Of a stretch of DNA of 64,000 nt, positions 34,245 to 62,303 are shown in pieces. The stretch covers positions 491,282-555,281 of the forward strand of contig JAHFKK010000001.1 in NCBI GenBank assembly GCA_023245335.1, in the 5' to 3' direction. Numbering within the stretch: position 1 is the first letter of the stretch; the number at the start of each line of letters is the position of its first letter. This DNA comes from Candidatus Gottesmanbacteria bacterium. GTDB taxonomy: Bacteria; Patescibacteriota; Microgenomatia; UBA10105; UBA927. A program made the position numbers and the translations under genes. Below the pieces are notes generated by a model that was given only the letters and a program-made list of their open reading frames with translations, was not told where the DNA came from and did not search any database.

Positions 34245-34331
34245 AATATGGTGCAATACTTGTCTAGACGATGTAACATATTCGAAAGGATATAAATGGT
34301 CAGTTAATAATTATTTTAGAGCTTTACCTAA

Positions 34332-35186: not shown

Positions 35187-35208
35187 AAACTTGCCTTAAT
35201 ATTATTAT

Positions 35209-35484
35209 ATGAATACCTACTTAGTATCGTTTGAGACACTCCCTCCCTCGCTCCAAATACAGGAGGATATCCTTATTAACGCAATAAAGATGTTTGGACC
35301 ATGGGCTAGACCTAACTCAAAGGTTTGGTTAATTAAAACTTATCTAACTAGGGAACAAGTAATTGAGAGTTTAAGAGCGAGTGCTGGCCCAAACGACAAA
35401 ATACTTGTTATGTCGGTTAATAATGATTGGATAGCGGTTAACCTTCCAAACGATGTCGTAAATTGGATGAAATCTGGTTTGTAA
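35209..35484 (+). CDS. 91-aa hypothetical protein, partner of the PIN-like gene (same AT-rich island)
   Basis: ORF track; 22-nt gap after the upstream gene; no motif recognised. Confidence 0.4.
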   Translation: MNTYLVSFETLPPSLQIQEDILINAIKMFGPWARPNSKVWLIKTYLTREQVIESLRASAGPNDKILVMSVNNDWIAVNLPNDVVNWMKSGL

Positions 35485-35538
35485 TATTTAAGATGTCGCT
35501 CGTTATTCTTCTTTACTAATCCCCATGGCTCATTTATA

Positions 35539-36723
35539 GTGAAGCTCTGTATGGTGACGCTCTCCAAAGATCAAAAAGCCGCATTATCACACGTTCTTGA
35601 GTGGTACCGAAAAGACCGGGACGAGATGCAGTACGTCACGCTTGGCGGCTATGCGGGGACCGGCAAGACGACGCTTATTGCCGTCATCCGTCAGGAACTC
35701 AATAAGATCGATCCGGGACTCAAAGTCGGTTTCGTGAGTTTCACCGGTAAAGCGGCGCGGGTGCTTCAGACGAAAATCAAAGAAGCGGATATACATTTCC
35801 GTCAGGACAGTGTGGGTACGATTCACGCGCTTATCTATACGCCGGTCCTCAATGACAAAGAACAAATTGTCGGATGGAAGCAAAAAGAAACGATTGACCG
35901 TAATCTTATTATCATCGATGAGGCATCGATGGTCGATTCCGTTATCTGGGAGCACCTCATATCCTACGACGTCCCGATGATCGTTGTCGGCGACCACGGG
36001 CAGTTGCCGCCTATTAAAGGTAACTTTTCTTTGATGCAGCAGCCCCAACTGCGCTTAGAAGAAATCCACCGGCAGGCAAAGCTTGACCCCATCATTTCCC
36101 TATCGATTCAGGCGCGGGAAACGGGCTTCATCATTCCCAAAAGGTATTCCGACCGGGTCATCAAATTCTCTTCGGATGACTCGACGACCGCAGAGACACT
36201 GGAGGAGATGCTCACGAACTACAAAAACGATACCCTTATCCTCTGCGGCTACAACAAAACAAGAAAACGGATAAATAGTTACATCCGCGCGGCACTCGGC
36301 ATAGAATCGCAAACACCGGTCACGGGCGATCGGGTTATTTGTCTCCGCAATAATCACAAAGCAAAGATCTATAACGGGATGCTCGGTACGATTGCCCGGA
36401 TAGAGGAAAAAAGCGATAGCGTTTACGACGTGGATATAGACATAGACGGGGAGCATGATACGTATTCAGGCCGCATCTCGACCGAACAATTTGACGCGGA
36501 TACGACGCTCAACTTCACCGAGAACCGTGCGCTCTATAACGGCATAGACCTTTTTGACTTCGGCTACGCGCTCACCGTGCATAAGGCCCAGGGGAGCCAG
36601 GCCAAACGGGTGATACTTTTCGAGGAGCGGTTTAGCCGCATGACGGATGACGAGTGGCGTCGCTGGCTCTATACTGCAGTGACGAGAGCTGAACGCGAGC
36701 TCTATATCTTTCCGTCGCTCTAG
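35539..36723 (+). CDS. SF1B Dda/RecD-like (Pif1-type) DNA helicase, compact 394 aa
   Basis: Walker A 'GGYAGTGKTT', Walker B 'IIDEASMV', 'VGDHGQLPPI', 'TVHKAQGSQ', 'LYTAVTRAEREL'. Confidence 0.8.
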   Translation: MKLCMVTLSKDQKAALSHVLEWYRKDRDEMQYVTLGGYAGTGKTTLIAVIRQELNKIDPGLKVGFVSFTGKAARVLQTKIKEADIHFRQDSVGTIHALIYTPVLNDKEQIVGWKQKETIDRNLIIIDEASMVDSVIWEHLISYDVPMIVVGDHGQLPPIKGNFSLMQQPQLRLEEIHRQAKLDPIISLSIQARETGFIIPKRYSDRVIKFSSDDSTTAETLEEMLTNYKNDTLILCGYNKTRKRINSYIRAALGIESQTPVTGDRVICLRNNHKAKIYNGMLGTIARIEEKSDSVYDVDIDIDGEHDTYSGRISTEQFDADTTLNFTENRALYNGIDLFDFGYALTVHKAQGSQAKRVILFEERFSRMTDDEWRRWLYTAVTRAERELYIFPSL

Positions 36724-36738
36724 CAGTACAATTGTCCT

Positions 36739-37314
36739 ATGGCAAACCGTATAGTCACCGCTGTCTACGTCAAGAGCTTGAACGGGACCGATGATCTCCT
36801 CAATGACACCAAGCCCCAAATAGTTTTCATGGGACGCTCCAATGTGGGTAAATCCAGCCTCATCAATTCTCTGGTGGGGAAACCCCTGGCCCGGTCCAGC
36901 AAGCAGCCGGGAAAGACGCATACACTCGACTTTTTTCTCATCAATGACAAAGTTTATTTCGTGGATCTTCCGGGCTACGGGTTTGCTAATAGGTCTAAGG
37001 ATGAGCTTGAACATTTCCGTAAACTCATCGCCTGGTATTTGTTTACCTCCGGGGCGCCGATTAAGCTTGCTGTCCTTATCATTGATGTACATATAGGATT
37101 CACCGATTACGATAGGGAATCCATGGAGTTATTGCACGATCACCAAATTCCTTTTGTCCTCGTCGCCAATAAAGCCGATAAGCTCAAGATGGGCGAACGC
37201 GTCAAGAAACTGAAAGAGTTAAGTGCGAGTTACGCAAACATCCTGGTCATTCCCTACAGTTCCTATACAAGAGAAGGTAAGGATAAACTTCTTGCGATAG
37301 TCAGCCTCAAATAA
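36739..37314 (+). CDS. engB: Ribosome-biogenesis GTPase EngB/YsxC
   Basis: G1 'GRSNVGKSS', G3 'DLPGYG', G4 'NKADK'. Confidence 0.85.
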   Translation: MANRIVTAVYVKSLNGTDDLLNDTKPQIVFMGRSNVGKSSLINSLVGKPLARSSKQPGKTHTLDFFLINDKVYFVDLPGYGFANRSKDELEHFRKLIAWYLFTSGAPIKLAVLIIDVHIGFTDYDRESMELLHDHQIPFVLVANKADKLKMGERVKKLKELSASYANILVIPYSSYTREGKDKLLAIVSLK

Positions 37315-37417: not shown

Positions 37418-37783
37418 ATGAATAATAAAATTCTTCTTGGTATAGTTGCGGTCGTCGTTCTTATCGGGGCGGGATATTATATGTCCAAGGGCGCATACAA
37501 GCCTGCGGTACAGCCAACTCCCTCTACACAAACGGCGGCGGCACCCAATACGGTGACGGTCAATAATTTTGCGTTTGATCCGCCTGCACTCACGGTGAAG
37601 GTCGGAGATACGGTGACCTGGGTCAACCAGGATTCCGTAGGACACACCATAAAAGGCGATGCATTTAACTCTCCGCTCCTTCAGCAGGGAGAAAAGTTTA
37701 CGTTTACCTTTGCCAGCAAAGGGACGTTTAACTACATTTGCAGCGTCCATCCTTCCATGAAGGGTACTATCACGGTTGAATAA
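37418..37783 (+). CDS. Membrane-anchored cupredoxin (plastocyanin/azurin-like blue-copper protein)
   Basis: Cu ligand pattern H...C..H..M: 'SVGHT' and 'YICSVHPSMKG'; N-terminal TM. Confidence 0.65.
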   Translation: MNNKILLGIVAVVVLIGAGYYMSKGAYKPAVQPTPSTQTAAAPNTVTVNNFAFDPPALTVKVGDTVTWVNQDSVGHTIKGDAFNSPLLQQGEKFTFTFASKGTFNYICSVHPSMKGTITVE

Positions 37784-40076: not shown

Positions 40077-40895
40077 TTAGTGGGCGCTAGTCGTTCCCGA
40101 CAGTTTGGATTCTTCCTGCACAAAATACGAGAGGATTTTATTTTTCCGCTCGTCTACGGTCAACTTTGACTGTATGCCGGGGCCCATGATGCACCCGCCA
40201 TCGCAGTTTAATATGTCGAGGATCCGCAGCGAAGGGTCGGCATCGAACTCTTTGATCGCGGCGATATTGCGCGCTGGGCCGGAAACAATTTTGACAGCAT
40301 TTTTCCCGAGGGTGTCACTCACCTTGCCGCTTTTCGTGAGACCCCCATCCAACGGGTAGAGTTTGGTGAGCCCGGATATGGAGATATCGAAATGATCCTC
40401 GGGGCGTTTGACGTCGTCGGTGATATTGAAATGCGTAAACACCTGGGTAAGCTCGGTATAGGTGAGGACGAGAATATTGAGTTCCGGGGCTTCTTCACGG
40501 GCTTCATACTTTTTGACGAAGCACGGGCCGATAAATACGGGCCGGTAACCCGGATATTTTTCTTTCACGATTTTGGCGGTCGCTATCATCGGTGAATCCA
40601 CGCCTTGGGTGAGGTAATGGCTATATTGCGGCAGCTGCCGTTTGATGAGGCGGACCAGTGTCGGACAGGGGCTTGTGATGTATCGTTTATCGGGGTGACC
40701 CGAAAGGAGTTTCGTCAGTTGCTCGTTCGTGACCCTGGCGCCAGCTGCGACCTCTGCAGTATAGGTAAAGCCTAAGCTTTTGAGCATGGTGATGATACCG
40801 GGGTACGTAAATACGATAGGAAACGACGGCGCAAGCATAGCGACTAATTTTCCTTTGCGAGTGAGAAGATCGATAAGCGTGTCAATGTCGGTCAT
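40077..40895 (-). CDS. [FeFe]-hydrogenase-like H-cluster domain protein, stand-alone 272 aa
   Basis: L1-like 'ITSPCPTLV' (TSCCP with the first Cys replaced by Pro), L2 'FIGPCFVKKYE' (MPCxxKKxE), L3 'ILNCDGGCIMGPG' (ACxGGCxxGGG). Confidence 0.55.
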   Translation of the reverse strand: MTDIDTLIDLLTRKGKLVAMLAPSFPIVFTYPGIITMLKSLGFTYTAEVAAGARVTNEQLTKLLSGHPDKRYITSPCPTLVRLIKRQLPQYSHYLTQGVDSPMIATAKIVKEKYPGYRPVFIGPCFVKKYEAREEAPELNILVLTYTELTQVFTHFNITDDVKRPEDHFDISISGLTKLYPLDGGLTKSGKVSDTLGKNAVKIVSGPARNIAAIKEFDADPSLRILDILNCDGGCIMGPGIQSKLTVDERKNKILSYFVQEESKLSGTTSAH

Positions 40896-41403
40896 AGCGG
40901 GTGGTGATCGTCATAACGGCGTATGAAAGCACTCCTCCGAAAAGCGCGGTCACAAGCTGTACTATCCCCATCGCCGTCAAAAAAATCGGCGGTACCAGTC
41001 GGAATCGGAGGTAGATGAACGCTGCCGTATACAACAGAAGATATTTCGCGATTGCGGCGGCGGAGATTTTCAGCGTAAAATTGTATTTTGAGAAATGAGT
41101 AAACGCCCAAATCAGTATGTAATTGCCGAGCCAGATAAATGGTAGGAAAAAATAGAGGAATATCGTTTGCGGTCCAAAAAGGACGCCGTGAGCGAGAGCC
41201 CCGAGACTCGGCAGGATAATGACCGGTATCTGATCCTTCCGAGTGAGCCGGGTAACCGCGAGGAAGAGAAGGCAGTTTACCAGAGTCCCCGTGACTATCT
41301 GGTTGGCATTAAACGCAAGCGGTATCATAAACGCCGCGATATAGAGGGATAGCCGGAGGCTTGTGGTGAGCGGGTGCGGTATTGACACGGTCTTTGATTC
41401 CAT
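40882..41403 (-). CDS. Five-to-six-TM membrane protein, hypothetical; co-oriented with and overlapping the hydrogenase-like gene
   Basis: Hydrophobic helices; possible ECF-S-component-like topology; no motif. Confidence 0.45.
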   Translation of the reverse strand: MESKTVSIPHPLTTSLRLSLYIAAFMIPLAFNANQIVTGTLVNCLLFLAVTRLTRKDQIPVIILPSLGALAHGVLFGPQTIFLYFFLPFIWLGNYILIWAFTHFSKYNFTLKISAAAIAKYLLLYTAAFIYLRFRLVPPIFLTAMGIVQLVTALFGGVLSYAVMTITTRYDRH

Positions 41404-42228: not shown

Positions 42229-43071
42229 ATGTTAACTACCGCAGTCATAGCATTTCGGGAGTTTTTGGAAGCATTTCTTATCGTTGGGGTATTCCTGGGT
42301 ATATCCAGGAAACTCAAGCTTCGGAAAGGATTGGAAATCGGGTTTGCCGCAGCGGTCGGCGTCCTTCTGTCTCTGCTTCTAGCGATCGGTACGTATGTAT
42401 TTGGTGATCACGCCCGGGTCATACTGACCGAGAAGAATGCCGATGCGCTGGAAAGTTATCTCCTTATTTTTTCCGGTGTGTTTATCTCATACGTTGTGTT
42501 CTCGCTTCATGATCTCCTGCGTAAAAGTCGGGGGGGGAGTGTACTTCTCGCCCACAGGAAACTGCAGCAGCGCGAACTTTTTGATGTGTCGCTCTTTGCC
42601 ACGATAGCATTTCTCGTACTGAGGGAAGGATTTGAAATTGCGCTTTTTACTGCAAGTGTCGCGTTATTTTCCGAATTTACGCAAAACGTGTTGGGGCTGC
42701 TATTGGGATTTGCAGCGGCGGCAGTGCTCGGGCTTTCGACGTTTTTTGCGTATATACGATTGCCTCTGGGTAAGGTCTTCAGAGCGACGGAATACATGAT
42801 CATTCTCCTGGGTGCTTCGCTTACTCAACATGGAGTGACACTTCTTTTGGAGACGAATTTCAGCGTGCGCCTTTCCGACATGTTGTCATTCCATCTGTCG
42901 TTTCTCCCGGGAGAAGATAGCCTTCTCGGTCACCTGTTACAGGGGTTTTTGGGTGTTGATAGGGAGTTTAGCCTGGTGAGGCTTACGATCATGATCCTTT
43001 ACATCGGCATGATATATGCCGTGTTTCTCCGAAAAAAGAAAGTAAGACCGGATCTGCCTATTTCAGCCTGA
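42229..43071 (+). CDS. FTR1/EfeU-family iron permease
   Basis: Two RExxE motifs: 'FREFLEAFLI' and 'LREGFEIALF'; 7 TM. Confidence 0.75.
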   Translation: MLTTAVIAFREFLEAFLIVGVFLGISRKLKLRKGLEIGFAAAVGVLLSLLLAIGTYVFGDHARVILTEKNADALESYLLIFSGVFISYVVFSLHDLLRKSRGGSVLLAHRKLQQRELFDVSLFATIAFLVLREGFEIALFTASVALFSEFTQNVLGLLLGFAAAAVLGLSTFFAYIRLPLGKVFRATEYMIILLGASLTQHGVTLLLETNFSVRLSDMLSFHLSFLPGEDSLLGHLLQGFLGVDREFSLVRLTIMILYIGMIYAVFLRKKKVRPDLPISA

Positions 43072-46955: not shown

Positions 46956-47486
46956 ATGAAAAAGTTTTTCCTGTCCGTATCGGTTGTCGCAGCCTTTGTT
47001 CTCTATTCGTTTATCCGGCAGAATACCGTACCGGCCACGGCCCCGACGAGTCCAATCACAGATGCGGCCCCGACCCCCGAACCGACTTCGCCGCCCATAC
47101 CGTCTCCGACGCAGGGATCAAAAACGACATTACCGGTATTTCCTAACGCGACGGCAATGCCTACCGCTCCGCCGCCCACGCCGACTACGGCTGTGAAGCG
47201 CGGGCAATACCGGGACGGCAGCTATATAGGGGATACGTTTGATGCGTTTTACGGCAACATTCAGGTGCAAGCGGTCGTGAGCGGAGGCAGGCTTACCGAC
47301 GTCAAGATACTTCAGTACCCTAATGACCGCAGGACCTCCGTCGCTATAAACAGCCAGGCGCTCCCCATGCTGCAACAGGAAGCAATACAGGCGCAAAGCG
47401 CAAACGTGGATATTATTTCCGGAGCGTCAGATACGAGTAGTGCGTTCGTTCAGTCACTGGGAACGGCACTTAAAAAAGCAGTATGA
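46956..47486 (+). CDS. Secreted FMN-binding-domain protein with ApbE flavinylation motif
   Basis: Signal/TM, Pro/Thr linker, 'GQYRDGSYIGD...YGNIQVQAVVSGGRLTDV' FMN_bind pattern and 'VDIISGASDTS' (D-x-x-S-G-A-S/T target Ser/Thr). Confidence 0.7.
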   Translation: MKKFFLSVSVVAAFVLYSFIRQNTVPATAPTSPITDAAPTPEPTSPPIPSPTQGSKTTLPVFPNATAMPTAPPPTPTTAVKRGQYRDGSYIGDTFDAFYGNIQVQAVVSGGRLTDVKILQYPNDRRTSVAINSQALPMLQQEAIQAQSANVDIISGASDTSSAFVQSLGTALKKAV

Positions 47487-48226
47487 AACAAACGCGCGTG
47501 ATGTGGGACATGCCGATAACGGTGGAATTGAGGGATGCCGAAAATTCGGAAGGACTTATCGATGCAGTATATTCCTACTTTCAGCATGTAGATGATACGT
47601 TCAGTACGTTCAAACCTACCAGTGAAATCTCCCGGATCAACAGAAAAGAGCTCGTAGAACATGAATGGAGTGCTGACATGCGCGAAGTGGTTGCCCTCTG
47701 TGAACAAACACGGATAGACACCCGTGGATTTTTTTCCTACATACGTGACGGAGAAATTCACCCGTTGGGACTGGTGAAAGGCTGGGCTCTCCACAAAGCG
47801 GCTGACATGTTACGAGGTAAGGGCGTGAAGAATTTTTTCATAGAGGCCGGCGGGGATGTAGAAATAAGCGGCGTAAGTGCGCCGAATGTCCCATGGAGTG
47901 TCGGCATCCGGGATCCTTTTTACCGGAAAGACATCGTCAAAAAATTATTACTCACCGATTGCGGTGTCGCGACGTCCGGCACGTACATCCGGGGATATCA
48001 CATCTATAATCCCTTTGCGCCCGATACGAATGTCGCCGGTGTGACGAGTCTTACCGTAGTGGGACCGAATGCATATGAGGCAGACCGGTTCGTGACTCCG
48101 GCATTCGCCATGGGCATAAAAGGCGTAGAATTTATAGAGACGGTTGGAGGTCTTGAGGGGTACCAGATTGATGCGCGCGGTATGGCTACGTTTACGAGCG
48201 GTTTTGAACGATATGTCGATCATTAG
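47483..48226 (+). CDS. apbE: FAD:protein FMN transferase (ApbE family), short form
   Basis: 'MWDMPITVEL' (MGTxVxI-like start), 'GLVKGWALHKAADML', 'FIEAGGDV', 'CGVATSGTY'; ATGA overlap with the upstream gene. Confidence 0.7.
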   Translation: MKQTRVMWDMPITVELRDAENSEGLIDAVYSYFQHVDDTFSTFKPTSEISRINRKELVEHEWSADMREVVALCEQTRIDTRGFFSYIRDGEIHPLGLVKGWALHKAADMLRGKGVKNFFIEAGGDVEISGVSAPNVPWSVGIRDPFYRKDIVKKLLLTDCGVATSGTYIRGYHIYNPFAPDTNVAGVTSLTVVGPNAYEADRFVTPAFAMGIKGVEFIETVGGLEGYQIDARGMATFTSGFERYVDH

Positions 48227-49751
48227 GAATCTGTTGGGCTTTGTTGATTCGATACTCGACCGTATCACCATGTATCGGGTGATACTGTATTACCTTATCG
48301 CGATTCTCCTGATCGCGATGGGGTTATCGGCGTTCGGTTTGCTTTCGTATGACCCGGTGAGTATCGGCCTAACCGCGCTGTTTTTTGTCTTCGTCAGCGA
48401 ATGGACGAACGATGTGTTTTCCAAGGTGTTTGCTGTTCCGGTCAATGTCGAGTCCACGACGATTACGGCTCTTATTTTGGCCTGCATCGTGTCGCCGGTT
48501 AAACAGGCGTCGGACTTTATCTCGATCGCCATTATCTCGGTACTTGCCGTATCGTCAAAATATATTCTCGCCATCAACAAAAAGCATTTATTTAATCCGG
48601 CCGCACTCGCTGTCGTTCTCTCCGGTTCGTTTTTTCGAGTTCCGGCGACATGGTGGGTTGGGAACCCGGCACTCGCGTGGTTCGTCGGACTAGGCGGACT
48701 TCTCGTCATGCGGAAGATACGCCGCGAACCGATGATATGGACGTTTTTCGGAACAGTACTTCTGGTGTCTACGATGACGGCTATTTTGAAAGGATCACCC
48801 CTTGTCACGCTCTACTCGCGGCTGTTTCTTCATTCATCGCTGTTATTTTTGGCATTCGCGATGCTTACAGAACCGATGACAAGTCCGCCGGTCAAGGATA
48901 TGCAGATTGTATTTGCGGCAATCGTGGGATTTTTGTTTGTGCCGGACATCCACATCGGTTCAGTATATTCCACTCCCGAGTTGGCATTAGTTGCAGGAAA
49001 TGTATTTTCCTATGTTGTGAGTCCCAAAGAGCGTCTGGTCCTGTATCTTAAAGAAAAAATTCTGCACTCCTCTGACGTCATTGATTTTGTTTTCACCCTT
49101 CCTCAGGGGATCAACCATACGCCGGGACAGTATATGGAATGGACCCTTCCGCACAAAGATCCTGACAGCAGAGGCAACCGCAGATACTTTACCTTGGCCT
49201 CGTCTCCGACGGAGTCGGAATTGCGGTTAGGCGTAAAGTTTTATGAACACTCAAGCAGTTTTAAGAAAGCGCTTTTAGCCCTTGGATCGGGGACACCTAT
49301 AGCCGCCTCACAGCGGGCGGGAGATTTTGTATTACCCAAAGACACCGCGCAAAAGCTTGTCTTCATAGCCGGAGGCATTGGCGTGACTCCATATCGGAGC
49401 ATAATCAAATATTTGGTGGATAAGGGAGAGCGGCGTGACATTGTCCTGATGTATGCCAATAAGATCAAAAATGATATCGTGTACGCGGATATATTTGAAA
49501 AGGCCCGTGTGCTTTTGGGTATGCGCACGATCTATACGTTGACTGATACTGCGGCTATCCCCGCCGATTGGGGCGGAAAACGGGGTCGTATTGATAGTGC
49601 CATGATCGCTTCGGAAATTCCGGATTTTCGCGACAGACATTTTTACCTTTCCGGCCCGTATGCTATGGTAACTTCGTATGAACGGGTGCTTTTGGGTATG
49701 GGAGTTCCGGATGCTCAGATCAAGAAAGATTTCTTCCCAGGTTTTGTCTGA
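48213..49751 (+). CDS. Fusion of an RnfD/NqrB-like polytopic membrane domain with a ferredoxin-NADP-reductase-like FAD/NAD(P)-binding domain
   Basis: Membrane part contains 'KKHLFNPAALAVV' (HxFNPA signature of NQR2/RnfD/RnfE); C-terminus has 'RRYFTLAS' (RxYS FAD motif) and 'LVFIAGGIGVTPYRS' (NAD motif). Start is ambiguous (48213 or 48270). Confidence 0.55.
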   Translation: MSIIRNLLGFVDSILDRITMYRVILYYLIAILLIAMGLSAFGLLSYDPVSIGLTALFFVFVSEWTNDVFSKVFAVPVNVESTTITALILACIVSPVKQASDFISIAIISVLAVSSKYILAINKKHLFNPAALAVVLSGSFFRVPATWWVGNPALAWFVGLGGLLVMRKIRREPMIWTFFGTVLLVSTMTAILKGSPLVTLYSRLFLHSSLLFLAFAMLTEPMTSPPVKDMQIVFAAIVGFLFVPDIHIGSVYSTPELALVAGNVFSYVVSPKERLVLYLKEKILHSSDVIDFVFTLPQGINHTPGQYMEWTLPHKDPDSRGNRRYFTLASSPTESELRLGVKFYEHSSSFKKALLALGSGTPIAASQRAGDFVLPKDTAQKLVFIAGGIGVTPYRSIIKYLVDKGERRDIVLMYANKIKNDIVYADIFEKARVLLGMRTIYTLTDTAAIPADWGGKRGRIDSAMIASEIPDFRDRHFYLSGPYAMVTSYERVLLGMGVPDAQIKKDFFPGFV

Positions 49752-51059: not shown

Positions 51060-51509
51060 TTACGGTGTTGGACTTTGTGTCGGAGTCGGTCCCCCGCGGT
51101 CCATGCGTGGATTCAACTGTACGGATTGTGCAGTCACGGATCCGTCTGAATTGGTTGTACCAAAAACGGAAACCGGTGCGCCTGCTTTCAGGTCGGAAAC
51201 GGTCGCTGCCGTGGCCTGATCAATTTGTGTTTTACTCGTAAGAAGGGCGATTTTCGTACTGCCGTCTGATAATTTGACGGTAACAGACTGCGCGTCTGCC
51301 GATACGATCTGACCGGCAATCGGTCGGAAGCCCTGACGGCCGGCGCCTCCCTGGCCCCGGGCTCCGCCCTGGGCGTTACCCAATCCGAATTGTCGTTGCG
51401 GTGATTGTGATTGCTGGTATTTCATACCGCCGAAAAATCCGGCTCCGCCTACGACAACCGCAACCACGAGAAGCAAACCTATATTATTTTGTTTCATTAT
51501 TTTTTTCAC
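51060..51509 (-). CDS. Secreted Gly/Gln-rich small protein (DUF5666-like beta domain)
   Basis: TM/signal 'IGLLLVVAVVVGGAGFFGG', G/Q-rich linker, 'VTVKLSDGSTKI...VSVFGTTNSDGSVTAQSVQL'. Confidence 0.45.
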   Translation of the reverse strand: MKKIMKQNNIGLLLVVAVVVGGAGFFGGMKYQQSQSPQRQFGLGNAQGGARGQGGAGRQGFRPIAGQIVSADAQSVTVKLSDGSTKIALLTSKTQIDQATAATVSDLKAGAPVSVFGTTNSDGSVTAQSVQLNPRMDRGGPTPTQSPTP

Positions 51510-52554
51510 CTCCCTTCAAATACATATCAAAAAAATCTACGGAACGCTGTAATGCAAGCGAAAGATGCCCGGATATATTGTGATCGTCACCGGGATACGT
51601 AAACAGCTCGACGCTTTTTCCTGCGGCTTTGAGTTCACTCTCGAGCGTTTCGGAAAAGACGACCGGCACTTCTTCGTCGGTGATACTGTGATCAAGCTGT
51701 ATGGGAGCCGTGATGTCGGCAAGGTGCCCGTTTGCGGAAATAGAATTCCAGAAGACAGGATTTTTGTCCGGACTCCCATATCGGGCAACCAGCGCGTTTC
51801 GCCATCCGGGAGGATTCCCGCTGCCTCCGGTCCTGAACTCGGGTCTCGGTGTGGTTTGAGGATGCCATTTGGTAAAAAGGTCGGCGTATGATGCGACGAC
51901 ACCTCCCCATATGACTGCCGCTTTGATGTCGTGGGACACAACAAGCGCGCGGAGCGTGATAAACCCTCCCATGGAGTGTCCCCACATGCCGATCTTACTT
52001 GGGTTGGCAGTACTATATTTTTTAATAGAGGCAACGGCGTTTAAGACGTCGATCGTATAGGCATTGGATCCGTATGCTCCGACGGCTTGTCCTTCGGAGT
52101 TGCCGTTTCCGCGGTAGTCGGGACGAAAGACGATATAGCCGTTCCGCGAAAATGCGTCGGTATAGGCGATATATCGCTCCGTGGGGCTATAGGTTTTGGG
52201 AGGTATATACCCGTGATTAAAGACGATGACAGGCCATCCGTTCGTCGGAGCAGTTCCATCCGGGACGGTGAGGAGCGCATAAATTTTCAACCCCTCGGAT
52301 TTATACGAGGCAAGGTACCGCTGATAATTTGATCCCGGTGCGAGCGTTTGTTCTATAGTGATGCTACTTCCGGGAAACGACGTTTGTTTCAGTGCGTCTA
52401 TCGAAAGCGGATTGTTTGCGTTGGGTGCGGGTGTCGTATTCGCATTTAGAATATTCTGGGTGTCGCGAAATTTCGGAACCTTGGAATATAGAAGTCCCGC
52501 GATGATGCCAAGTACCAGGATGGACCCGAGGACGATCACATGTGACTTATTCAT
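51484..52554 (-). CDS. Membrane-anchored alpha/beta-hydrolase (S9/dienelactone-hydrolase-like)
   Basis: Nucleophile elbow 'GHSMGG'; 'PVIVFNHGY'; N-terminal TM. Confidence 0.7.
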   Translation of the reverse strand: MNKSHVIVLGSILVLGIIAGLLYSKVPKFRDTQNILNANTTPAPNANNPLSIDALKQTSFPGSSITIEQTLAPGSNYQRYLASYKSEGLKIYALLTVPDGTAPTNGWPVIVFNHGYIPPKTYSPTERYIAYTDAFSRNGYIVFRPDYRGNGNSEGQAVGAYGSNAYTIDVLNAVASIKKYSTANPSKIGMWGHSMGGFITLRALVVSHDIKAAVIWGGVVASYADLFTKWHPQTTPRPEFRTGGSGNPPGWRNALVARYGSPDKNPVFWNSISANGHLADITAPIQLDHSITDEEVPVVFSETLESELKAAGKSVELFTYPGDDHNISGHLSLALQRSVDFFDMYLKGGEKNNETK

Positions 52555-53770
52555 ACCGCAATGCTTCGATCGGCTGTAAATCAGACGCTTTTTTGGCAGG
52601 ATACCATCCGAAGAGGATGCCTATGCCCGCTGATACGGCGAATGCAAGAAGTATCGAGGTCGGAGAAATGATAAAGAGAGAACCGGTAACGCGCGAGATG
52701 ATGAAGGATGTCAATATTCCGACGACAATGCCTATGGCGCCTCCCGTGAACGTCAGCATGATGGACTCGGCCAAAAACTGTGTCGTAATGGTTTTCTTTT
52801 TGGCGCCTAAGGCTTTACGAAGTCCGATCTCGCGTGTCCGTTCGGTGACGGTCACGAGCATAATGTTCATAATGCCGATGCCTCCTACCAGAAGCGATAT
52901 TGCGGCAATCCCGGATAATAGCGACGTAAATATCCCGGTCGTTGCCGTAGCGGTATTTAATATATCCTGCTGGGAAAAAATACGGAAATCCGCTTGCGTG
53001 GGATCATTGAATTTGTGCCGCAGGAGAAGGAGATATCCTACTTCGTTTTCCGCTTGCGTCATGACGTCGGCGCTTTTGGCTTCCAGTGCGATGCTATTGA
53101 GGTAGTCCACACCCATGAGTTGTTTTTGCGCGGTTGGGAGGGGGACGATTATGATGTCATCCTGGTTTTGGAATCCCGATCCGCCTTTAGATTTGGTAAT
53201 ACCGATAACCGTAAATGTCTGGCCGCTTATGCGGAGTTTCTGCCCTATGGGAGTTGTCCCGTCACCAAAGAGATCGCTTACGACCTGTGGTCCGATGACG
53301 GCCACCTTGGTCACGCCGTCGATATCCCGCTGCGTGATAAAGTTGCCGTTTGCTATCACGACTTTATGGACGTCCGCATACACGGGGGTTGCGCCGATGA
53401 CTTGTGTATTCGTATTATTGGCGCCGGTCGTTACCTGTATGCGGCGCTGTACTTCCGGAGAGACGGTTTTGACGGTGGTGATCTGCGTGGACGTCTGTAT
53501 GGCCTTTGCGTCATCCAGAGTAAGTGATGTTCCGCCGCCTATGGCCCCGCGTACCGCACCATTTTGTTGGGCAGAGGGGGACACTGTGAGAAGGTTAGCC
53601 CCGAGTGATTGAATCTGATCCTGTATGGATTGCTGTGTGGCCTGTCCCAAAGAGACAAGTGCGATGACGCTGCCGATACCGATGACGATGCCAAGGACAG
53701 CAAGTCCCGTCCGCAACTTGTTTATGGTAAGCGTATTTATGCTTTCGAGTAAGAGTTCAATCGGTTCCAT
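52547..53770 (-). CDS. ABC transporter permease, MacB/FtsX-type
   Basis: N-terminal TM, large periplasmic domain, then a 3-TM FtsX domain 'ISLLVGGIGIMNIMLVTVTERTREIG'. Confidence 0.8.
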   Translation of the reverse strand: MEPIELLLESINTLTINKLRTGLAVLGIVIGIGSVIALVSLGQATQQSIQDQIQSLGANLLTVSPSAQQNGAVRGAIGGGTSLTLDDAKAIQTSTQITTVKTVSPEVQRRIQVTTGANNTNTQVIGATPVYADVHKVVIANGNFITQRDIDGVTKVAVIGPQVVSDLFGDGTTPIGQKLRISGQTFTVIGITKSKGGSGFQNQDDIIIVPLPTAQKQLMGVDYLNSIALEAKSADVMTQAENEVGYLLLLRHKFNDPTQADFRIFSQQDILNTATATTGIFTSLLSGIAAISLLVGGIGIMNIMLVTVTERTREIGLRKALGAKKKTITTQFLAESIMLTFTGGAIGIVVGILTSFIISRVTGSLFIISPTSILLAFAVSAGIGILFGWYPAKKASDLQPIEALRYE

Positions 53771-54488
53771 GGTGTAGCGTTGCCTTCCGCTGTTTGTGTC
53801 CGTCACCATCCTCAACGATGTTGCCGTCCCGGACATGAATGATACGTTTGGCATGTTCCGCTATATCCGGTTCGTGTGTAATCATGACGATGGTATGCCC
53901 CTGGTCATTGAGCCTTTGGAATATAGCCATGACCTCTTCTGCCTGAACGCTTGCTATGTTGCCGGTTGGTTCATCGGCAAGGATAAGCGCGGGGTTTAGA
54001 ACAAGAGCCCTGGCTATCGCGACGCGCTGCTGTTGCCCGCCGGATATTTGGTTGGATGTATGGTAAATCCGGTTGCCTAGTCCAACCATCTCGAGAAACT
54101 TTTTGGCCGTAGCTTCCCGTTCGGCTTTCGGAATCCCTGCGTACATCATGGGTAGCGTCACATTTTTGAGCGCAGTAGTTCTCGGAAGGAGATTGAATGC
54201 CTGAAAGACAAAGCCAATTTTACGGTTCCGTATGTCGGCAAGCTCGTCATCAGTGAGGTTTTCTACGTTTTCTCCGTCGAGGACATACGTACCGCTCGTC
54301 GGTAAGTCCAACGCGCCCAAAATGTGCATGAGCGTTGATTTGCCGCTTCCCGAGGGGCCCATGATAGCGACGAACTCGCCTTTATCAATGGTAAATGACA
54401 CGTCGTCAAGCGCGACCGTCTCGATCGCGTCTGTTTTATACACCTTTCTAAGGTGAGACACCTGGATAATGGACTTGGGGCCTGACAT
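53757..54488 (-). CDS. ABC transporter ATP-binding protein (MacB/LolD-type)
   Basis: Walker A 'GPSGSGKST', signature 'ISGGQQQRV', Walker B '[10 protein letters not shown]'. Confidence 0.9.
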
Positions 54489-54493
54489 AGAGT

Positions 54494-55873
54494 TTAGTTT
54501 CCCCGTATGACACGGGTCGTGCCGCCGCCGCCTCCGCCGAAGCCGCGGTTACCGCCGCCAAGCGCGCTGAATGGGGACGTGACACTTGAGCTTGTCGTCG
54601 ATGTCGTCGGAGCAGTCGAACCCGTTACGACCGTATCGCCTTCGGCAATACCGGAAACGATTTCGGTTTGTGTATCATTGGATAGCCCCACCGTGACGTC
54701 AACTGACGTCGCAGTGCCGTTTTTGAGGGTTCGTACTGTCGATTGTCCGCCGGTTGTCTGTACGGCCGCGTTGGGAACCAAAACGACACTATCTTTGACT
54801 GCAGTAATTATGTTGGCATCAACCGCCATGTTGGGGTAAATGCCGTCTACTGCAGAATCATACGTGATATATGCAGGATATGTGGTCACCCCGGAAGACA
54901 CGGTACCAGTCGTGTCTATGCTGACGACTTTGCCGGTAAATGACTGGTTCGGGAATGCATCCATCGTTATCGTTGCCTTATCTCCGATTTTTACTTTGGG
55001 GACGTCAACCTCATTCAGGTTGACGACAGCCGTCGGAGTCGCGGTTGTTTTGATGTTCCCGATCCTTTGAGCTGTGGAGTTGCCGGTTGAACTTGTTTGT
55101 GCTGTGAGTACGGATCCGGCCTGCAGCGATATGCCGCTTATAGTACCGGAAATCGGCGCGTAGATAGTAGGTGACGATTGTTGGTATGACGCCCAAGCGC
55201 TGTTGACGGATGTTTGAGCCGCCGCAACGACGTTTTGTTGGTTGGCGTACTGTGCTTCAGCCGCGAGCCAATCATCCTGGACCGTCGTAAATTGTGTCAG
55301 GACGCGGTTGGTAGTATTCGGACTGCTGTCCGAGTTTTGATACGTGGAATTTTCTGCGAGGTCGGTGTAGGTTTTCCATTTCGAAAACATAGCTGACTGC
55401 AGTGAGTACATACCCGCTTGGGCGCTCGCGAGTTGGTTTTTGGCGCTTTGATATGAGGCGAACGCCTGAGCAGACCGTTGGTTGCCTTCCATATCCAGGT
55501 CAACAAGCGCTATGGGGTCACCCGATTTGACGGCGTCACCGTTTTTGACGTAGATTTTGGAAACGACTCCTGACGTCTGTGTTGAAACTGACGCGCTATT
55601 GGCGCTTGATACCTGGCCGGATGTCGCAAGTGTCACGACGAGTGTGTCGCGGACTGCCTTTTCTGACTGATACTGTGTTTTGGTTCCTCCTGATCCGCTG
55701 ATCTTTGTGTATCCGAACCATGCGACGGCGAAAATAAGAACCAGCGATCCAAGCTTCAGAAGAAGCGGTAAGGCAAGGAACCTTTGTACAATGGATTTTC
55801 TTTCTGGTGTCGCGGTTTCGGATGATTTCATAGTGACAATTAATTTTACTATAGTATCTTGAGCTGAAAGCAA
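54494..55873 (-). CDS. MacA/HlyD-family periplasmic adaptor with Gly-rich C-terminus
   Basis: TM anchor, lipoyl 'VVSKIYVKNGDAVKSGDPIALVD', long Q/A-rich coiled coil and beta-barrel; start possibly the internal Met 55831. Confidence 0.75.
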   Translation of the reverse strand: MLSAQDTIVKLIVTMKSSETATPERKSIVQRFLALPLLLKLGSLVLIFAVAWFGYTKISGSGGTKTQYQSEKAVRDTLVVTLATSGQVSSANSASVSTQTSGVVSKIYVKNGDAVKSGDPIALVDLDMEGNQRSAQAFASYQSAKNQLASAQAGMYSLQSAMFSKWKTYTDLAENSTYQNSDSSPNTTNRVLTQFTTVQDDWLAAEAQYANQQNVVAAAQTSVNSAWASYQQSSPTIYAPISGTISGISLQAGSVLTAQTSSTGNSTAQRIGNIKTTATPTAVVNLNEVDVPKVKIGDKATITMDAFPNQSFTGKVVSIDTTGTVSSGVTTYPAYITYDSAVDGIYPNMAVDANIITAVKDSVVLVPNAAVQTTGGQSTVRTLKNGTATSVDVTVGLSNDTQTEIVSGIAEGDTVVTGSTAPTTSTTSSSVTSPFSALGGGNRGFGGGGGGTTRVIRGN

Positions 55874-55885
55874 GCTGAAATATAA

Positions 55886-56959
55886 TTACGACATGTTTTT
55901 GTTTTGTTTGACGGGTAAACGGACAGTAAACGTGGTTCCTTTTTTCAGTATACTGACAACCTGTATGGATCCCTGATGCGACTGTACGATTTTTTTGGCG
56001 ATGGAAAGCCCAAGGCCGTACCCGTCTGCATGGACCTTGCTTCGTGCAGTGTCCGCGCGATAAAACCGGTCAAATATTTTTGGCAGATCGGTTTCGTTTA
56101 TCCCTTGTCCGTGGTCAACGACGGATAGAAGTATCGATCCGTCGGTGCGCTTTGAACGCACGGTAATCGTGGATTCTTTGGGGCTATACTTAATTGCGTT
56201 GTCCAAAAGGATAACAAATAGATCCGTCAGGCTGAATTTGTCTCCCTCGATAATAGTAGGTTGCGTCAGATTTTCTATGGAGATCTTTTTTTGTTTTGCG
56301 AGGCTTGAGACTTTTCGGATTGCCGCTTCCGCAATATCGGTGACTTGTGTTTTGGCAAACGCATTGACGATTGAAGGCTTTTCGTATTGTGCAAGCTGGA
56401 GGAGCGCATCCGAAAGCGATTGGAGCTTGTTTACGTCGGTAATACTTTCCTTCATAAGTGTCTTCGCGCCGGCAAGCGTCAGGTCCGGATCCCGGAGATT
56501 TACTTCCATGGAGCTTTTGAGCGCAGTAAGCGGCGTACGCAGTTCATGAGACGCGTCGGAAATGAACCGATGCTGCTCATCAACCATTTCGGCGATGGGC
56601 TTTAGGGTCCGGCCGGCCAAGAAATACCCGAGCCCGCCGGATAGAACTAAAACGCCAACATTGACGATGGTAAGAAACCCGATTACCCGCTGCTGTACTT
56701 CGCTCACCAATGCGTCATCAAACACGACGGGGAGTGGGGCGATTTGTCCATCATCGGGGGGCAAAGGCGCCATATTTGAGTTCAGTCCATGTTCTATGCG
56801 AACCCGCTGTACGCGCGCGAAACGCTCGACCTCGGCGGAAAACATGCGGTAAATGACCGTACTGAAGGAGAGACTTATCACCATGATGATAAGGAGATAC
56901 CATGCGGTCAGTTTGAGTCGTGCAGAATGAAACATAGGCTTATCCCAGTTTATACCCAA
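55886..56959 (-). CDS. Sensor histidine kinase (HisKA + HATPase_c)
   Basis: H-box 'SHELRTPLTAL', N-box 'DNAIKYS', G1 'DHGQGI', G2 'GYGLGLSI'. Confidence 0.9.
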   Translation of the reverse strand: MGINWDKPMFHSARLKLTAWYLLIIMVISLSFSTVIYRMFSAEVERFARVQRVRIEHGLNSNMAPLPPDDGQIAPLPVVFDDALVSEVQQRVIGFLTIVNVGVLVLSGGLGYFLAGRTLKPIAEMVDEQHRFISDASHELRTPLTALKSSMEVNLRDPDLTLAGAKTLMKESITDVNKLQSLSDALLQLAQYEKPSIVNAFAKTQVTDIAEAAIRKVSSLAKQKKISIENLTQPTIIEGDKFSLTDLFVILLDNAIKYSPKESTITVRSKRTDGSILLSVVDHGQGINETDLPKIFDRFYRADTARSKVHADGYGLGLSIAKKIVQSHQGSIQVVSILKKGTTFTVRLPVKQNKNMS

Positions 56960-57611
56960 AACCTCTCACCGTCTGTATGAGAGGCTTTCCTGATGTAAAC
57001 GGGTGGTCGATTTTATTCCGGAGGTTTCTGATATAGACCTCGACCGTGTTGGGGAGGATGTCTGCTTCGTAGTCCCACACGTGACTGATGATTTGTTCTT
57101 TGGTTATGACGGTTTTGGCATGCCGAAGGAGAAATTCAAGTAATGCAAATTCCTTATTGGACAGATTGATTTGCCGTTTGCCCCTTGTTACTTCATAGGT
57201 GACGGTATTGAGCGTCAAATCCGCGACTCGGAGCGTTTCCGAGAGTGTGGTCTTCGGCCGTCGTATGAGTGCTCGTACTCTCGCAAGAAGTTCTTCAAAG
57301 GAAAACGGCTTCGTCAGATAATCGTCAGCTCCCGAATCCAAGCCTTCTACCTTATCACGAATCTGTCCTTTGGCGGTAAGCATGAGGATCGGCGTGTGTA
57401 TTTGTTTCGCGCGAAGCTCCTTACACACCGTGATGCCGTCCATGCCGGGTAAAAGAAGGTCTAGGAGGATGAGATCATACTCTTCTGACGAGGCAAGATC
57501 AAACCCGTCGGAGCCGGTATAGGCTACGTCAACCGCGTATTTTTCCTGTTCTAGTCCTTTTTTGATGGAATTCGCGATCCTATGTTCGTCTTCCACCACA
57601 AGAATTCTCAT
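56940..57611 (-). CDS. OmpR-family response regulator
   Basis: 'MRILVVEDEH', 'LILLDLLLPGMDG', 'LTAKG', winged-helix C-terminus 'VRGFGYKL'. Confidence 0.9.
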   Translation of the reverse strand: MRILVVEDEHRIANSIKKGLEQEKYAVDVAYTGSDGFDLASSEEYDLILLDLLLPGMDGITVCKELRAKQIHTPILMLTAKGQIRDKVEGLDSGADDYLTKPFSFEELLARVRALIRRPKTTLSETLRVADLTLNTVTYEVTRGKRQINLSNKEFALLEFLLRHAKTVITKEQIISHVWDYEADILPNTVEVYIRNLRNKIDHPFTSGKPLIQTVRGFGYKLG

Positions 57612-57652
57612 GCCTTCTATTATACTCCCGAGGCTGAAAACGAGCTGAAGAA

Positions 57653-58030
57653 TTACTGTTGTCCGAAGAATTGGATAAGGTTGCCTTCCGGATCCGCGAT
57701 TGTCATGCACCAGAAGCCTCCGGGCGGGCCGGCGAACGGTTTGGCGATGATCGTGACTTTTTTGGCTTTGAGTTCTTTATATACCTCGGTTACACTTTTG
57801 ACGTTGAATCCGATCATGATGCGGTAGGGATCTTTGTTTTTGCCTTTTACCTTGTTGTGCTTACCGACATAGAAGTATGTCGGAGCAAAGTCAAAATCCA
57901 CCCCGGTATCGTCCGGAAGGGTGAGTCGGCGCTGTACTTTGAAGCCGAGTATACTCTCATACCATGCGGCGAGCTTTTCGTAATCCGGCGACCAAAGGCA
58001 CACGGAAATGTCTTTGTTTATGAGTTTCAT
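57653..58030 (-). CDS. VOC-family (glyoxalase/bleomycin-resistance-like) protein
   Basis: Paired beta-alpha-beta-beta-beta modules; 'DPEGNLIQFF' C-terminal motif. Confidence 0.65.
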   Translation of the reverse strand: MKLINKDISVCLWSPDYEKLAAWYESILGFKVQRRLTLPDDTGVDFDFAPTYFYVGKHNKVKGKNKDPYRIMIGFNVKSVTEVYKELKAKKVTIIAKPFAGPPGGFWCMTIADPEGNLIQFFGQQ

Positions 58031-59947: not shown

Positions 59948-61342
59948 ATGAACACACAGCCGCCAGTGGGGAATTATAAGTACGGGTTTCACAAACCCGA
60001 GCACTACGTGTTTAAATCCGAGCGCGGATTGACGGAAGACGTCGTCCGGCAGGTGAGCGCACATAAGGGTGAACCGGATTGGATGCGCGATCGGCGATTG
60101 ACCGCGCTGTCCGTTTACGGGAAAAAGCCGTTGCCTTTGTGGGGAGCGGATCTTACGGCTATTAAGTTTGACGACATTTACTACTACATAAAGCCGACGA
60201 AAGACAAAGTGTCAGACTGGAAAGATCTGCCGCCTGAGATACGGGATACGTATGACCGGATCGGGATTCCGGAAGCAGAAAAAAAGTTTCTTGCCGGGGT
60301 GTCGGCCCAATACGAATCCGAGGTCGTCTATAAGAGTATCCAGGATACTCTCTCGAAAAAAGGCGTCGTGTTTTTGGATATGGATTCCGGGCTGAAGGAA
60401 TATCCGGATATCGTGCGGCAGTATTTTGGCACCATCATACCCACAGGGGACAATAAATTCGCGGCGCTTAATACTAGTGTCTGGTCCGGCGGGTCGTTTG
60501 TGTATGTCCCCAAAGGCGTGCATGTTGATTTACCGCTTCAGGCATATTTCCGTATTAATGCGGCGAATATGGGACAGTTTGAGCGGACGCTCATCGTTGC
60601 CGAAGAAGGAAGTTTTGTGCATTACGTCGAAGGATGTACGGCTCCCATTTACACAACCGATTCGCTGCACTCGGCGGTTGTCGAAATTATCGTGAAGAAA
60701 GGGGCGCGCGTGCGATATACCACGATCCAGAATTGGAGTACGAATGTCTATAACCTCGTCACCAAGCGGGCCCGGGTCGAAGAGGAAGGGACGATGGAAT
60801 GGGTGGACGGAAATTTAGGCAGCAAAGTAACGATGAAATATCCGAGCGTATATCTTATGGGAAGAAAAGCCCGCGGAGAAGTGCTTTCCATAGCATACGC
60901 GGGAGCACATCAGCATCAGGACGCAGGAGGGAAGGCAATCCATTTTGCACCAGAGACGACGTCGCAGATTATTTCCAAATCCATAAGTAGCGGCGGCGGA
61001 CGCACGTCGTATCGAGGGTTGGTGCACGTGTACCCCGGTGCAAAAAATGCGAAGTCCAAGGTCGTCTGCGACGCACTTATTTTGGATGAACGGTCCCGTT
61101 CGGATACGTATCCGACGATGAAAATAGATGAACAAAACGTTCAGATAGAACATGAGGCGACGGTGTCGAAAATCGGGGATGAGCAGTTATTTTATCTCAC
61201 GAGCCGCGGCGTCACCAAAGAGCAGGCGCAATCAATGATCGTCAACGGGTTTATAGAGCCGATCGTCAAAGAGTTGCCGCTTGAATATGCGGTCGAGATG
61301 AACCGGCTCATAGAACTTCAGATGGAAGGGTCGGTGGGATAA
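59948..61342 (+). CDS. sufB: Fe-S cluster assembly scaffold SufB
   Basis: 464 aa with conserved 'HYVEGCTAP', '[10 protein letters not shown]', 'HEATVSKI'. Confidence 0.9.
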
Positions 61343-61346
61343 AGGC

Positions 61347-61976: not shown

Positions 61977-61982
61977 AAGAAT

Positions 61983-62303
61983 ATGACTATGGATACCTTC
62001 GTTTTCGTAGCGAATGTAAGTGATCTCACACCCGGATCAATGAAAACTGTGATAATATCTGGAGGAAAATCGTTGGCACTGGCAAACGTCGACGGTGAGT
62101 TTTTCGCGATAGATGACACCTGTACTCACGAGCAGTGTTCGTTGGGCACGGAAGGAGCACTGGACGGTTCCGTCGTCATCTGCGGGTGTCACGGAGCAAA
62201 TTTTGATGTGACGACCGGTAAAGTTCTGGCTTTGCCCGCGCCGACTGATGTCGCTAGCTACGAAGTGAAGATAGAAAACGGTCAGGTGTTTGTGAAACTA
62301 TGA
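61983..62303 (+). CDS. Rieske [2Fe-2S] ferredoxin embedded in the suf operon
   Basis: 'CTHEQC' (CxH) and 'CGCHG' (CxxH) boxes. Confidence 0.8.
   Translation: MTMDTFVFVANVSDLTPGSMKTVIISGGKSLALANVDGEFFAIDDTCTHEQCSLGTEGALDGSVVICGCHGANFDVTTGKVLALPAPTDVASYEVKIENGQVFVKL

Follow-up and report, generated by a model that had tools for sequence, protein, structure and literature searches.

An NQR/RNF-like gene cassette of a Candidatus Gottesmanbacteria genome: a proposed NAD(P)H-to-outer-flavin conduit and its ApbE without an export signal

The NQR/RNF-like class and the window cassette

The NQR/RNF-like system has been defined by Meheust et al. (2021, eLife, PMC8238504) as a fusion of the Pfam domains PF03116 and PF00175 that is encoded inside a flavinylation gene cluster. 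These authors counted 127 such clusters, most of them from Actinobacteria and the candidate phyla radiation, and proposed for this architecture a one-way electron path from NAD(P)H to the outside, separate from Rnf and Nqr. The Ktedonobacter complex was modelled with AlphaFold-multimer by Huang et al. (2024, PMC10979944), who noted that the flavinylation site of RnfD/NqrB is not conserved and suggested that the flavin site of the membrane subunit is visited by the flavin mononucleotide (FMN) that the NqrC-like subunit carries covalently. Here, we analyze a three-gene cassette found in a 64,000-nucleotide stretch of DNA (hereafter, the window) from Candidatus Gottesmanbacteria bacterium (assembly GCA_023245335.1, contig JAHFKK010000001.1, positions 491,282 to 555,281 of the forward strand). 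The cassette encodes an FMN-binding (FMN_bind) protein, an ApbE-family flavin transferase and a fusion of an RnfD/NqrB-like membrane domain with a ferredoxin-NADP reductase (FNR)-type domain. We consider it, with a probability of about 0.7, to be an ordinary member of the published NQR/RNF-like system and to form the NAD(P)H-to-outer-flavin conduit proposed for that system.

The window cassette has the same fusion, FMN_bind and apbE genes as the published system and occurs in the same taxa (candidate phyla radiation, Ktedonobacter/Chloroflexi); the same one-way path is proposed for it, the same flavinylation site is lost, and no structural difference is seen. Within the fusion, the PF00175 match is significant, while PF03116 scores below its cut-off but profile and Foldseek searches lead to RnfD. 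Both the apbE and the FMN_bind genes, one of which is expected within five genes of the fusion gene, lie immediately upstream of it and overlap. As described by Huang et al. (2024), the RnfD loop with its threonine has collapsed and the motif of the partner protein (here DIISGAS) is conserved. The architecture and the model are already known from the 2021 and 2024 papers, and the locus adds no new concept. Three points described below are absent from these papers, according to text searches: an ApbE without a leader sequence, linkage to a MacB-type ATP-binding cassette (ABC)/DUF5666 module, and the larger size of the family.

All three genes are on the plus strand, co-directional, and overlap or nearly abut one another (Table 1). 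This agrees with a first-pass annotation, made by a model from the sequence and a list of its open reading frames, which had described three tightly linked or overlapping genes; the ATGA overlap between the FMN_bind and apbE genes was likewise confirmed. The open reading frame of the fusion spans 48144-49751. Since homologues begin at the ATG at 48213, this codon is most likely the start of the gene, which gives a protein of 512 amino acids and a 14-nt overlap with apbE. The earlier description of a polytopic protein fused to an FNR domain stands.

Table 1. Features of the cassette and of the rest of the window (positions are those of the window)
Feature	Coordinates	Strand	Details
NqrC/RnfG-like FMN-binding protein, 176 aa	46956..47486	+	N-terminal signal-anchor, P/T-rich linker, C-terminal FMN_bind domain
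N-terminal membrane anchor or signal sequence, MKKFFLSVSVVAAFVLYSFI	46956..47015	+	MKK + about 17 hydrophobic residues
ApbE flavinylation motif DIISGAS, residues 152-158	47409..47429	+	predicted FMN acceptor Ser158, codon 47427-47429
ApbE-family FAD:protein FMN transferase, 247 aa	47483..48226	+	bare catalytic domain; no signal peptide or lipobox
Fusion gene	48213-49751	+	
RnfD/NqrB-like 10-helix membrane domain, residues 1-273	48213..49031	+	profile, fold, charge pattern
HLFNPAALA motif, residues 125-133	48585..48611	+	H125, N128, P129 invariant
Short outward loop (...PATWW...), residues 141-151	48633..48665	+	predicted; replaces FMN-bearing loop of NqrB/RnfD
FNR-type FAD/NAD(P)H-binding domain and stop codon, residues 274-512	49032..49751	+	Pfam, NCBIfam, PDB profiles, Foldseek
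RRYFTLAS, residues 323-330	49179-49202	+	FNR domain
GGIGVTP, residues 387-393	49371-49391	+	FNR domain
FTR1-family permease	42229-43071		4 kb upstream of cassette
MacB-type module	51060-57710	-	1.3 kb downstream of cassette
tRNA synthetase, class II Asp/Asn/Lys type (tRNA-synt_2)	5024-6907		C-terminal YbaK-like tRNA_edit domain, PF04073, E 4.8e-31
Low-GC stretch	34000-36800		GC 0.40 vs about 0.50 elsewhere
PIN_12 protein in low-GC stretch	34332-35186		
RecD-like SF1 helicase in low-GC stretch	35539-36723		
Cupredoxin, plastocyanin/azurin family	37418-37783		small, membrane-anchored; PF00127 E 3.6e-13; C...H...M copper-site motif
272-aa protein and overlapping 173-aa polytopic membrane protein	40077-41403	-	272-aa protein has only the Fe-hydrogenase C-terminal large-subunit domain, PF02906
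SUF Fe-S assembly cluster	59948-63535		SufB, short SufD-like, SufS
Small Rieske [2Fe-2S] protein	61983-62303		between sufD and sufS

Related loci were collected in a scan with one genome per species, which yielded 68 loci labelled as Patescibacteria (Microgenomates, Levyibacteriota, Saccharimonadales and others) or Chloroflexi, including Ktedonobacteraceae; some labels of metagenome-assembled genomes look unreliable. The apbE gene is directly upstream of the fusion gene in 61 of the 68 loci. The FMN_bind gene stands beside the fusion gene in 56, and six more have a variant FMN-binding protein; loci that lack either gene are mostly contigs cut at the gene. The whole cassette thus recurs in about 62 of the 68 loci, across Patescibacteria and Chloroflexi, and linkage of the three genes is far beyond chance, as one would expect from the grouping made in the first-pass annotation. 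A second cassette subtype is present upstream of the fusion gene in loci L039, L044, L048, L050, L051 and L057. Its FMN-binding protein has the motif VSG(S/A)SLTP and is too divergent to be detected by phmmer with the window protein, and its ApbE is longer (about 290-330 amino acids) and likewise leaderless.

Searches with the membrane domain retrieved 314 representatives (50% identity clusters) at E ≤ 1e-30, a number that rises to 1488 at E ≤ 1e-3. The fused form prevails: of the 150 best representatives, 106 have at least 450 amino acids. The family is far commoner than the 127 clusters first reported.

Fold, topology and cofactor sites of the fusion protein

The membrane domain matched Pfam NQR2_RnfD_RnfE (PF03116) with an E-value of 2.5e-5 and 24.3 bits, which is below the cut-off of 27.7; its family assignment therefore rests on profile and fold tests. 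The NCBIfam rnfD model TIGR01946 matched with an E-value of 3.9e-5, and most close homologues carry a precomputed PF03116 assignment. No match was found when the single sequence of the membrane domain was compared to the PDB by phmmer. When a profile of 58 membrane domains was run against the whole PDB, only RnfD (8ahx_D, E 7.4e-6) and NqrB were matched. The AlphaFold (AF2) model of residues 1-276 (pLDDT 93.6, pTM 0.90) has ten helices, and the 15 best Foldseek matches of the membrane-domain model were RnfD (template modelling (TM) score 0.68-0.71) and NqrB (0.58-0.67), followed by urea transporters, which are known distant relatives of RnfD/NqrB (PMC12174285). With the full-length model of the fusion, Foldseek returned matches to the FNR domain only. 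The AF2 model thus has the ten-helix RnfD/NqrB fold that is related to urea/ammonium channels, and the RnfD-like domain that had been proposed from the letters alone is borne out both by the 58-sequence profile and by Foldseek. The same holds for the HxFNPA signature, which had been taken as a mark of NqrB, RnfD and RnfE: the HLFNPAALA motif aligns to FNPA of RnfD and LNPA of NqrB.

The membrane domain contains three histidines, of which only H125 is invariant, and the whole fusion has one cysteine, which is not conserved. A bis-haem ferric-reductase domain, which would have four conserved histidines and six helices and was named in the first-pass annotation as a competing identity, is ruled out by the single invariant histidine and the RnfD/NqrB fold; no ferric-reductase Pfam match was found over the membrane part. 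An iron-sulphur (Fe-S) cluster in the fusion is ruled out by the single non-conserved cysteine. Since there is no conserved cysteine and only one invariant histidine, flavins are the only plausible cofactors. In this respect the fusion differs from NOX/FRE ferric reductases and from the MsrQ-like and PepSY-like fusions to NAD-binding domains (Meheust et al. 2021). These follow the same logic of a polytopic domain with a C-terminal cytoplasmic FNR module that sends electrons outward, but their membrane domains hold two haems on conserved histidines, whereas the protein studied here has the RnfD fold, one invariant histidine and, presumably, flavins.

The charge pattern of the loops was analyzed in 54 sequences. 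Per protein, the loops predicted to be inside have on average 11.9 lysines and arginines and those predicted to be outside 1.2, with strict alternation. A topology with the N-terminus inside, ten helices and the C-terminus inside is therefore predicted, in which the N-terminus lies in the cytoplasm together with the RKIRRE loop and the FNR domain, and the loop formed by residues 141-151 lies outside. In the profile alignment, NqrB residues 209-271, which include Thr236, and RnfD residues from about 143 to 221 collapse to about 15 residues in the fusion. Canonical Rnf and Na+-NQR carry covalent FMN on a conserved threonine of RnfD and NqrB; here, the loop with this threonine is deleted. We considered residue 146 (A-[S/T] before WW) as a hidden flavinylation site. 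In the 54 sequences, the column preceding the invariant Trp-Trp contains Ser in 31, Thr in 12, Asn in 10 and Arg in 1; since Asn or Arg is present in 11 of 54, there is no conserved acceptor at this position and the candidate was rejected. Judging from these alignments, the covalent-FMN site of RnfD/NqrB is lost in the fusion, in agreement with Huang et al. (2024).

For the C-terminal domain, NAD_binding_1 (PF00175) matched with an E-value of 7e-15, and the FAD_binding_6 model gave no score. The flavohaemoprotein FNR module of NCBIfam aligns to residues 280-508, and the NCBIfam and PDB profiles overall cover residues from about 270 to 508, that is, complete FNR modules; the PDB profile matches were cytochrome b5 reductase, NqrF and flavohaemoglobin. 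Foldseek aligned the domain to 4eh1 with a TMt of 0.82. The RxYT/S and GGIGxTP motifs show no variation among 54 homologues. An FNR-type FAD/NAD(P) domain, as first annotated, is thus found by Pfam, NCBIfam, PDB profiles and Foldseek alike. Out of the three Pfam families that the annotation had suggested looking for, NAD_binding_1 was recovered, NQR2_RnfD_RnfE stayed below its cut-off and FAD_binding_6 did not score.

Compared with the RnfC-RnfD-RnfG branch of Rnf (PDB 9eri, 8ahx and 7zc6), the cassette has in common the ten-helix RnfD fold, the HxFNPA and TEP/TDP motifs and, as predicted here, a single-pass FMN_bind partner that would be flavinylated by ApbE and NAD(H) chemistry at the cytoplasmic face. 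It differs from Rnf in that RnfA/E with their [2Fe-2S] cluster, RnfB and RnfC are missing from the cassette, the FNR domain is fused where RnfC docks, and the covalent-FMN loop is deleted; there is no sign of ferredoxin coupling in the cassette. Compared with Na+-NQR (PDB 7xk3 and 8a1t), the FNR domain is most like the modules of NqrF, cytochrome b5 reductase and flavohaemoglobin, and the membrane domain aligns to residues 134-208 and 272-393 of NqrB. However, the fusion is without the N-terminal quinone-site helices of NqrB, the Thr236 loop and the 2Fe-2S ferredoxin domain of NqrF, there are no NqrA/D/E, and no quinone is expected for the cassette.

These homologies raise the question of whether the cassette belongs, as a fragment, to a conventional Rnf or Nqr complex. 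Its membrane domain and partner, as homologues of RnfD/NqrB and RnfG/NqrC, would then combine with RnfA/E/B/C-like subunits from genes elsewhere and serve in ion-coupled ferredoxin/NAD or NADH/quinone chemistry. Our inspection covers 64 kb of the 1.2-Mb contig. Among window proteins of at least 100 amino acids, no members of the RnfA/RnfE (NqrE/NqrD), RnfB/RnfC or NqrA/NqrF Pfam families were found, so that the remark of the first-pass annotation that no other Rnf/Nqr subunits are nearby holds across the entire window. Furthermore, the loop that is deleted in the fusion is strictly conserved in Rnf and Nqr, the fused FNR domain takes the cytoplasmic face where RnfC or NqrA binds, the three genes travel as a unit in two phyla, and the published analysis treats the system as separate and one-way (PMC8238504). 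We therefore regard assembly with such distant subunits as highly improbable.

The FMN-binding protein, its ApbE and the proposed electron path

The product of the first gene belongs to Pfam FMN_bind (PF04205, E 3.7e-6, 27.9 bits at a cut-off of 22). An alignment to the solved FMN-binding domain 8p2a_A (E 1.5e-12) covers residues 91-175 and places SGAS of the window protein on SGAT. The motif [DN]xx[ST]GA[ST] lies about 25 residues from the C-terminus in homologues, and its flavinylatable Ser/Thr is retained in nearly all of them. The N-terminus reaches a Kyte-Doolittle maximum of 2.35 over 17 residues and might be scored either as a signal peptide or as an anchor; a P/T-rich linker comes after it. 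An MKK-hydrophobic-HQ(K/R) pattern is kept in homologues, with on average 2.6 K/R before the helix and 1.5 after it. Because of the MKK anchor, the higher charge before the helix than after it and the P/T-rich linker, the protein is predicted to have its N-terminus inside and its C-terminus outside, with an outward-facing FMN_bind domain. The secreted or anchored FMN_bind protein with an ApbE target motif that was recognized at first reading is thus recovered by PF04205, by the alignment to 8p2a_A and by DIISGAS, and the predicted sidedness (FNR domain in the cytoplasm, FMN-binding protein facing outward) is the one expected there.

We propose that the cassette corresponds to the RnfC-RnfD-RnfG branch of Rnf reduced to two proteins plus a maturation enzyme and run outward from NAD(P)H. 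The FAD of the cytoplasmic FNR domain would oxidise NAD(P)H, standing in for RnfC or NqrF, and electrons would then be taken up by a flavin held non-covalently in the RnfD/NqrB-like membrane domain, where RnfD and NqrB themselves hold riboflavin on the cytoplasmic side. The next carrier would be FMN, attached by ApbE to Ser158 of the anchored NqrC/RnfG-like protein at the outer face, and this FMN may fill the pocket vacated by the lost flavinylated loop of RnfD. The outer flavin would, finally, hand electrons to an acceptor outside the cell, for example Fe(III), free flavins, O2 or a redox protein. In RnfD/NqrB, about 8 Å separate the riboflavin near the cytoplasm from the FMN near the outer face (PMC12174285); with such spacing, a two-flavin transmembrane relay is plausible, the relay step itself being one that we infer. 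The order of carriers proposed in the first-pass annotation, from NAD(P)H through the FNR and RnfD-like domains to an outer flavoprotein, is the same as in the published model and finds support at the level of sequence: the membrane domain is related to RnfD, the partner keeps its acceptor residue, and the three genes are co-conserved.

Several points weigh against this proposal. In addition to the PF03116 score below the cut-off, the flavin content of the membrane domain is deduced from homology only. The literature searched yielded neither a biochemical nor a genetic test of any NQR/RNF-like system and, beyond the two Light-lab papers, nothing on ApbE in Patescibacteria or on experiments with the system. 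No acceptor or terminal reductase gene co-conserved with the cassette was found among related loci. The remaining points concern ApbE and are considered below.

With respect to the acceptor, the outer flavin might serve assimilatory ferric reduction, making Fe(II) for the FTR1-family permease encoded upstream (Table 1), rather than an energy-related or NAD+-regenerating electron sink. FTR1 is also near the cassette in loci L001 and L006, VIT1 iron transporters are present in six NQR/RNF-like clusters, and several flavinylated systems are tied to iron assimilation (Meheust et al. 2021, PMC8238504). However, FTR1 is within 6 kb in just 2 of the 68 loci, one of them a syntenic close relative, and FTR1 is separated from the cassette in the window by genes for a dehydrogenase in the opposite orientation, an HxlR regulator, a DUF2079 protein and a glycosyltransferase. 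Assimilation through this permease thus appears rather unlikely. The cupin and methyltransferase genes next to the cassette, which were set aside as unrelated at the outset, recur only in the closest relative (L001), and, because they are not co-conserved, neither they nor FTR1 are considered to be parts of the system.

Delivery of NADH electrons to a surface FMN_bind protein is also known from the Listeria system (FmnB/PplA/Ndh2/EetA/EetB/DmkA), which the proposed conduit would resemble in that an ApbE-family enzyme flavinylates the surface protein. The Listeria route differs from it in that it runs through a membrane NDH-2 and a pool of demethylmenaquinone, that FmnB and PplA are lipoproteins bearing signal peptides, and that it has no RnfD-like domain. 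No genes for NDH-2, EetA/EetB or demethylmenaquinone synthesis were found within 10 kb on either side of the cassette or among the scanned window proteins.

The identity of the second gene is clear: its product matches Pfam ApbE (PF02424, E 3.6e-33, 115.7 bits at a cut-off of 25.6) and can be aligned with Vibrio cholerae ApbE (6nxi) across the SGTY...HIYNP region (SGTY...H-I-x-[DN]-P), as its first annotation as an ApbE-family enzyme implied. Yet no signal peptide, lipobox or transmembrane segment was found either in the window ApbE or in the 61 cassette ApbEs from the 68 loci, which include the divergent Saccharimonadales subtype and Chloroflexi members. The window protein starts with MKQTRVMWDMPITVEL, at the first strand of the fold, and its maximum hydropathy is 0.2. 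A longer N-terminus is excluded by an in-frame stop three codons upstream of the apbE ATG. Since the substrate is predicted to face outward, enzyme and substrate are predicted on opposite sides of the membrane. Characterised ApbEs with extracytoplasmic targets are secreted lipoproteins, and a cytoplasmic ApbE is known for a cytoplasmic target, e.g., in Klebsiella (PMC12052999). Thus, from the earlier statement that ApbE flavinylates extracytoplasmic domains, the identities of the enzyme and of the motif stand here, but extracytoplasmic action is not straightforward for a local ApbE without an export signal. A leaderless cassette ApbE is not mentioned in PMC8238504, PMC10979944 or the 2025 ApbE review (PMC12052999), according to text searches, and is a modest addition to the published papers. 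The signal-peptide requirement used in the 2021 survey may explain the small number of candidate phyla radiation clusters counted there.

A programmed frameshift or readthrough that would fuse the FMN_bind and ApbE genes, and thereby export ApbE together with its substrate, was considered and rejected, as the spacing and frame of the junction vary between loci. The one case of a single FMN_bind-ApbE open reading frame, L049, ends in junk sequence and gives no support for a fusion.

The mismatch between enzyme and substrate could be resolved in several ways. FMN may be attached before export to the still unfolded C-terminal motif, a second, secreted ApbE may be encoded elsewhere in the genome, ApbE may be exported by a non-classical route, or the FMN_bind domain may be cytoplasmic after all. 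The first and the last of these amount to the same machinery with a different maturation or location: the leaderless cytoplasmic ApbE would flavinylate the C-terminal motif prior to translocation, which would require no FAD export, or the FMN_bind domain would stay in the cytoplasm and shuttle electrons from the FNR to the membrane domain. All 61 recovered cassette ApbEs being leaderless is consistent with this, as are the known cytoplasmic ApbEs with cytoplasmic targets, the ability of ApbE to accept a motif of only seven residues, which works best at a terminus (PMC12052999), and the position of the FMN_bind motif about 25 residues from the C-terminus. Conversely, the charge distribution and the P/T-rich linker of the FMN_bind protein predict an outward domain, the pocket left by the lost RnfD loop is at the outer face, no precedent for export of an already flavinylated chain was found, and a secreted ApbE could be encoded elsewhere in the 1.2-Mb genome. 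We consider this variant unlikely, although somewhat less so than iron assimilation through FTR1. Its extension to the whole clade, i.e., a cytoplasmic flavin transferase that attaches FMN to the NqrC-like protein before translocation or acts on a flavinylated domain on the cytoplasmic side, is a tentative suggestion of similarly low probability. The published one-way path to an outward-facing FMN_bind protein remains the reading that we prefer for the cassette.

Neighbouring genes and meaning for Patescibacteria

A MacB-type module is located downstream of the cassette on the opposite strand. It consists of a two-component system (response regulator and histidine kinase), a membrane-fusion protein, an ABC ATPase, an FtsX/MacB_PCD permease and a DUF5666 protein, sometimes with an S9/S15 peptidase. 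The ABC-FtsX-DUF5666 core is present within 6 kb of the cassette in 15 of the 68 loci, in three arrangements. In L005 (1255-4820), L041 (886-4687), L042 and L047, the module is on the same strand, with the DUF5666 gene directly before the FMN_bind gene. In about 15 loci of the Patescibacteria type, the cassette thus adjoins a MacB-type ABC/DUF5666 module or forms an apparent operon with it. Since the linkage is seen only in loci of this type, shared ancestry is inseparable from function.

Other features of the window are listed in Table 1. The cupredoxin is possibly an extracytoplasmic electron carrier; there is no obvious respiratory chain in the window. The architecture of the tRNA synthetase with an editing domain looks unusual, and the low-GC stretch may be a small mobile or defence insert.

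If the flavin transferase of the whole clade indeed acts in the cytoplasm, either of the two cases would depart from the present rule, by which ApbE and its target are located in one compartment. Attachment of FMN prior to translocation would, moreover, reveal how an outer-face flavoprotein is made by flavin-auxotrophic, ultra-small bacteria with no export of FAD. The larger family, the leaderless dedicated ApbE in every cassette examined and the frequent MacB-type ABC/DUF5666 linkage in Patescibacteria are additions to the published picture that may be useful for testing it.

Patescibacteria (candidate phyla radiation) generally have neither respiratory chains nor quinones. The proposed path needs no quinone, haem or Fe-S cluster and so suits these organisms. 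An all-flavin conduit of two proteins, leading from NAD(P)H to the cell surface, could be among the few means that Patescibacteria have to shed reducing equivalents, reduce iron, or swap electrons with a host cell.

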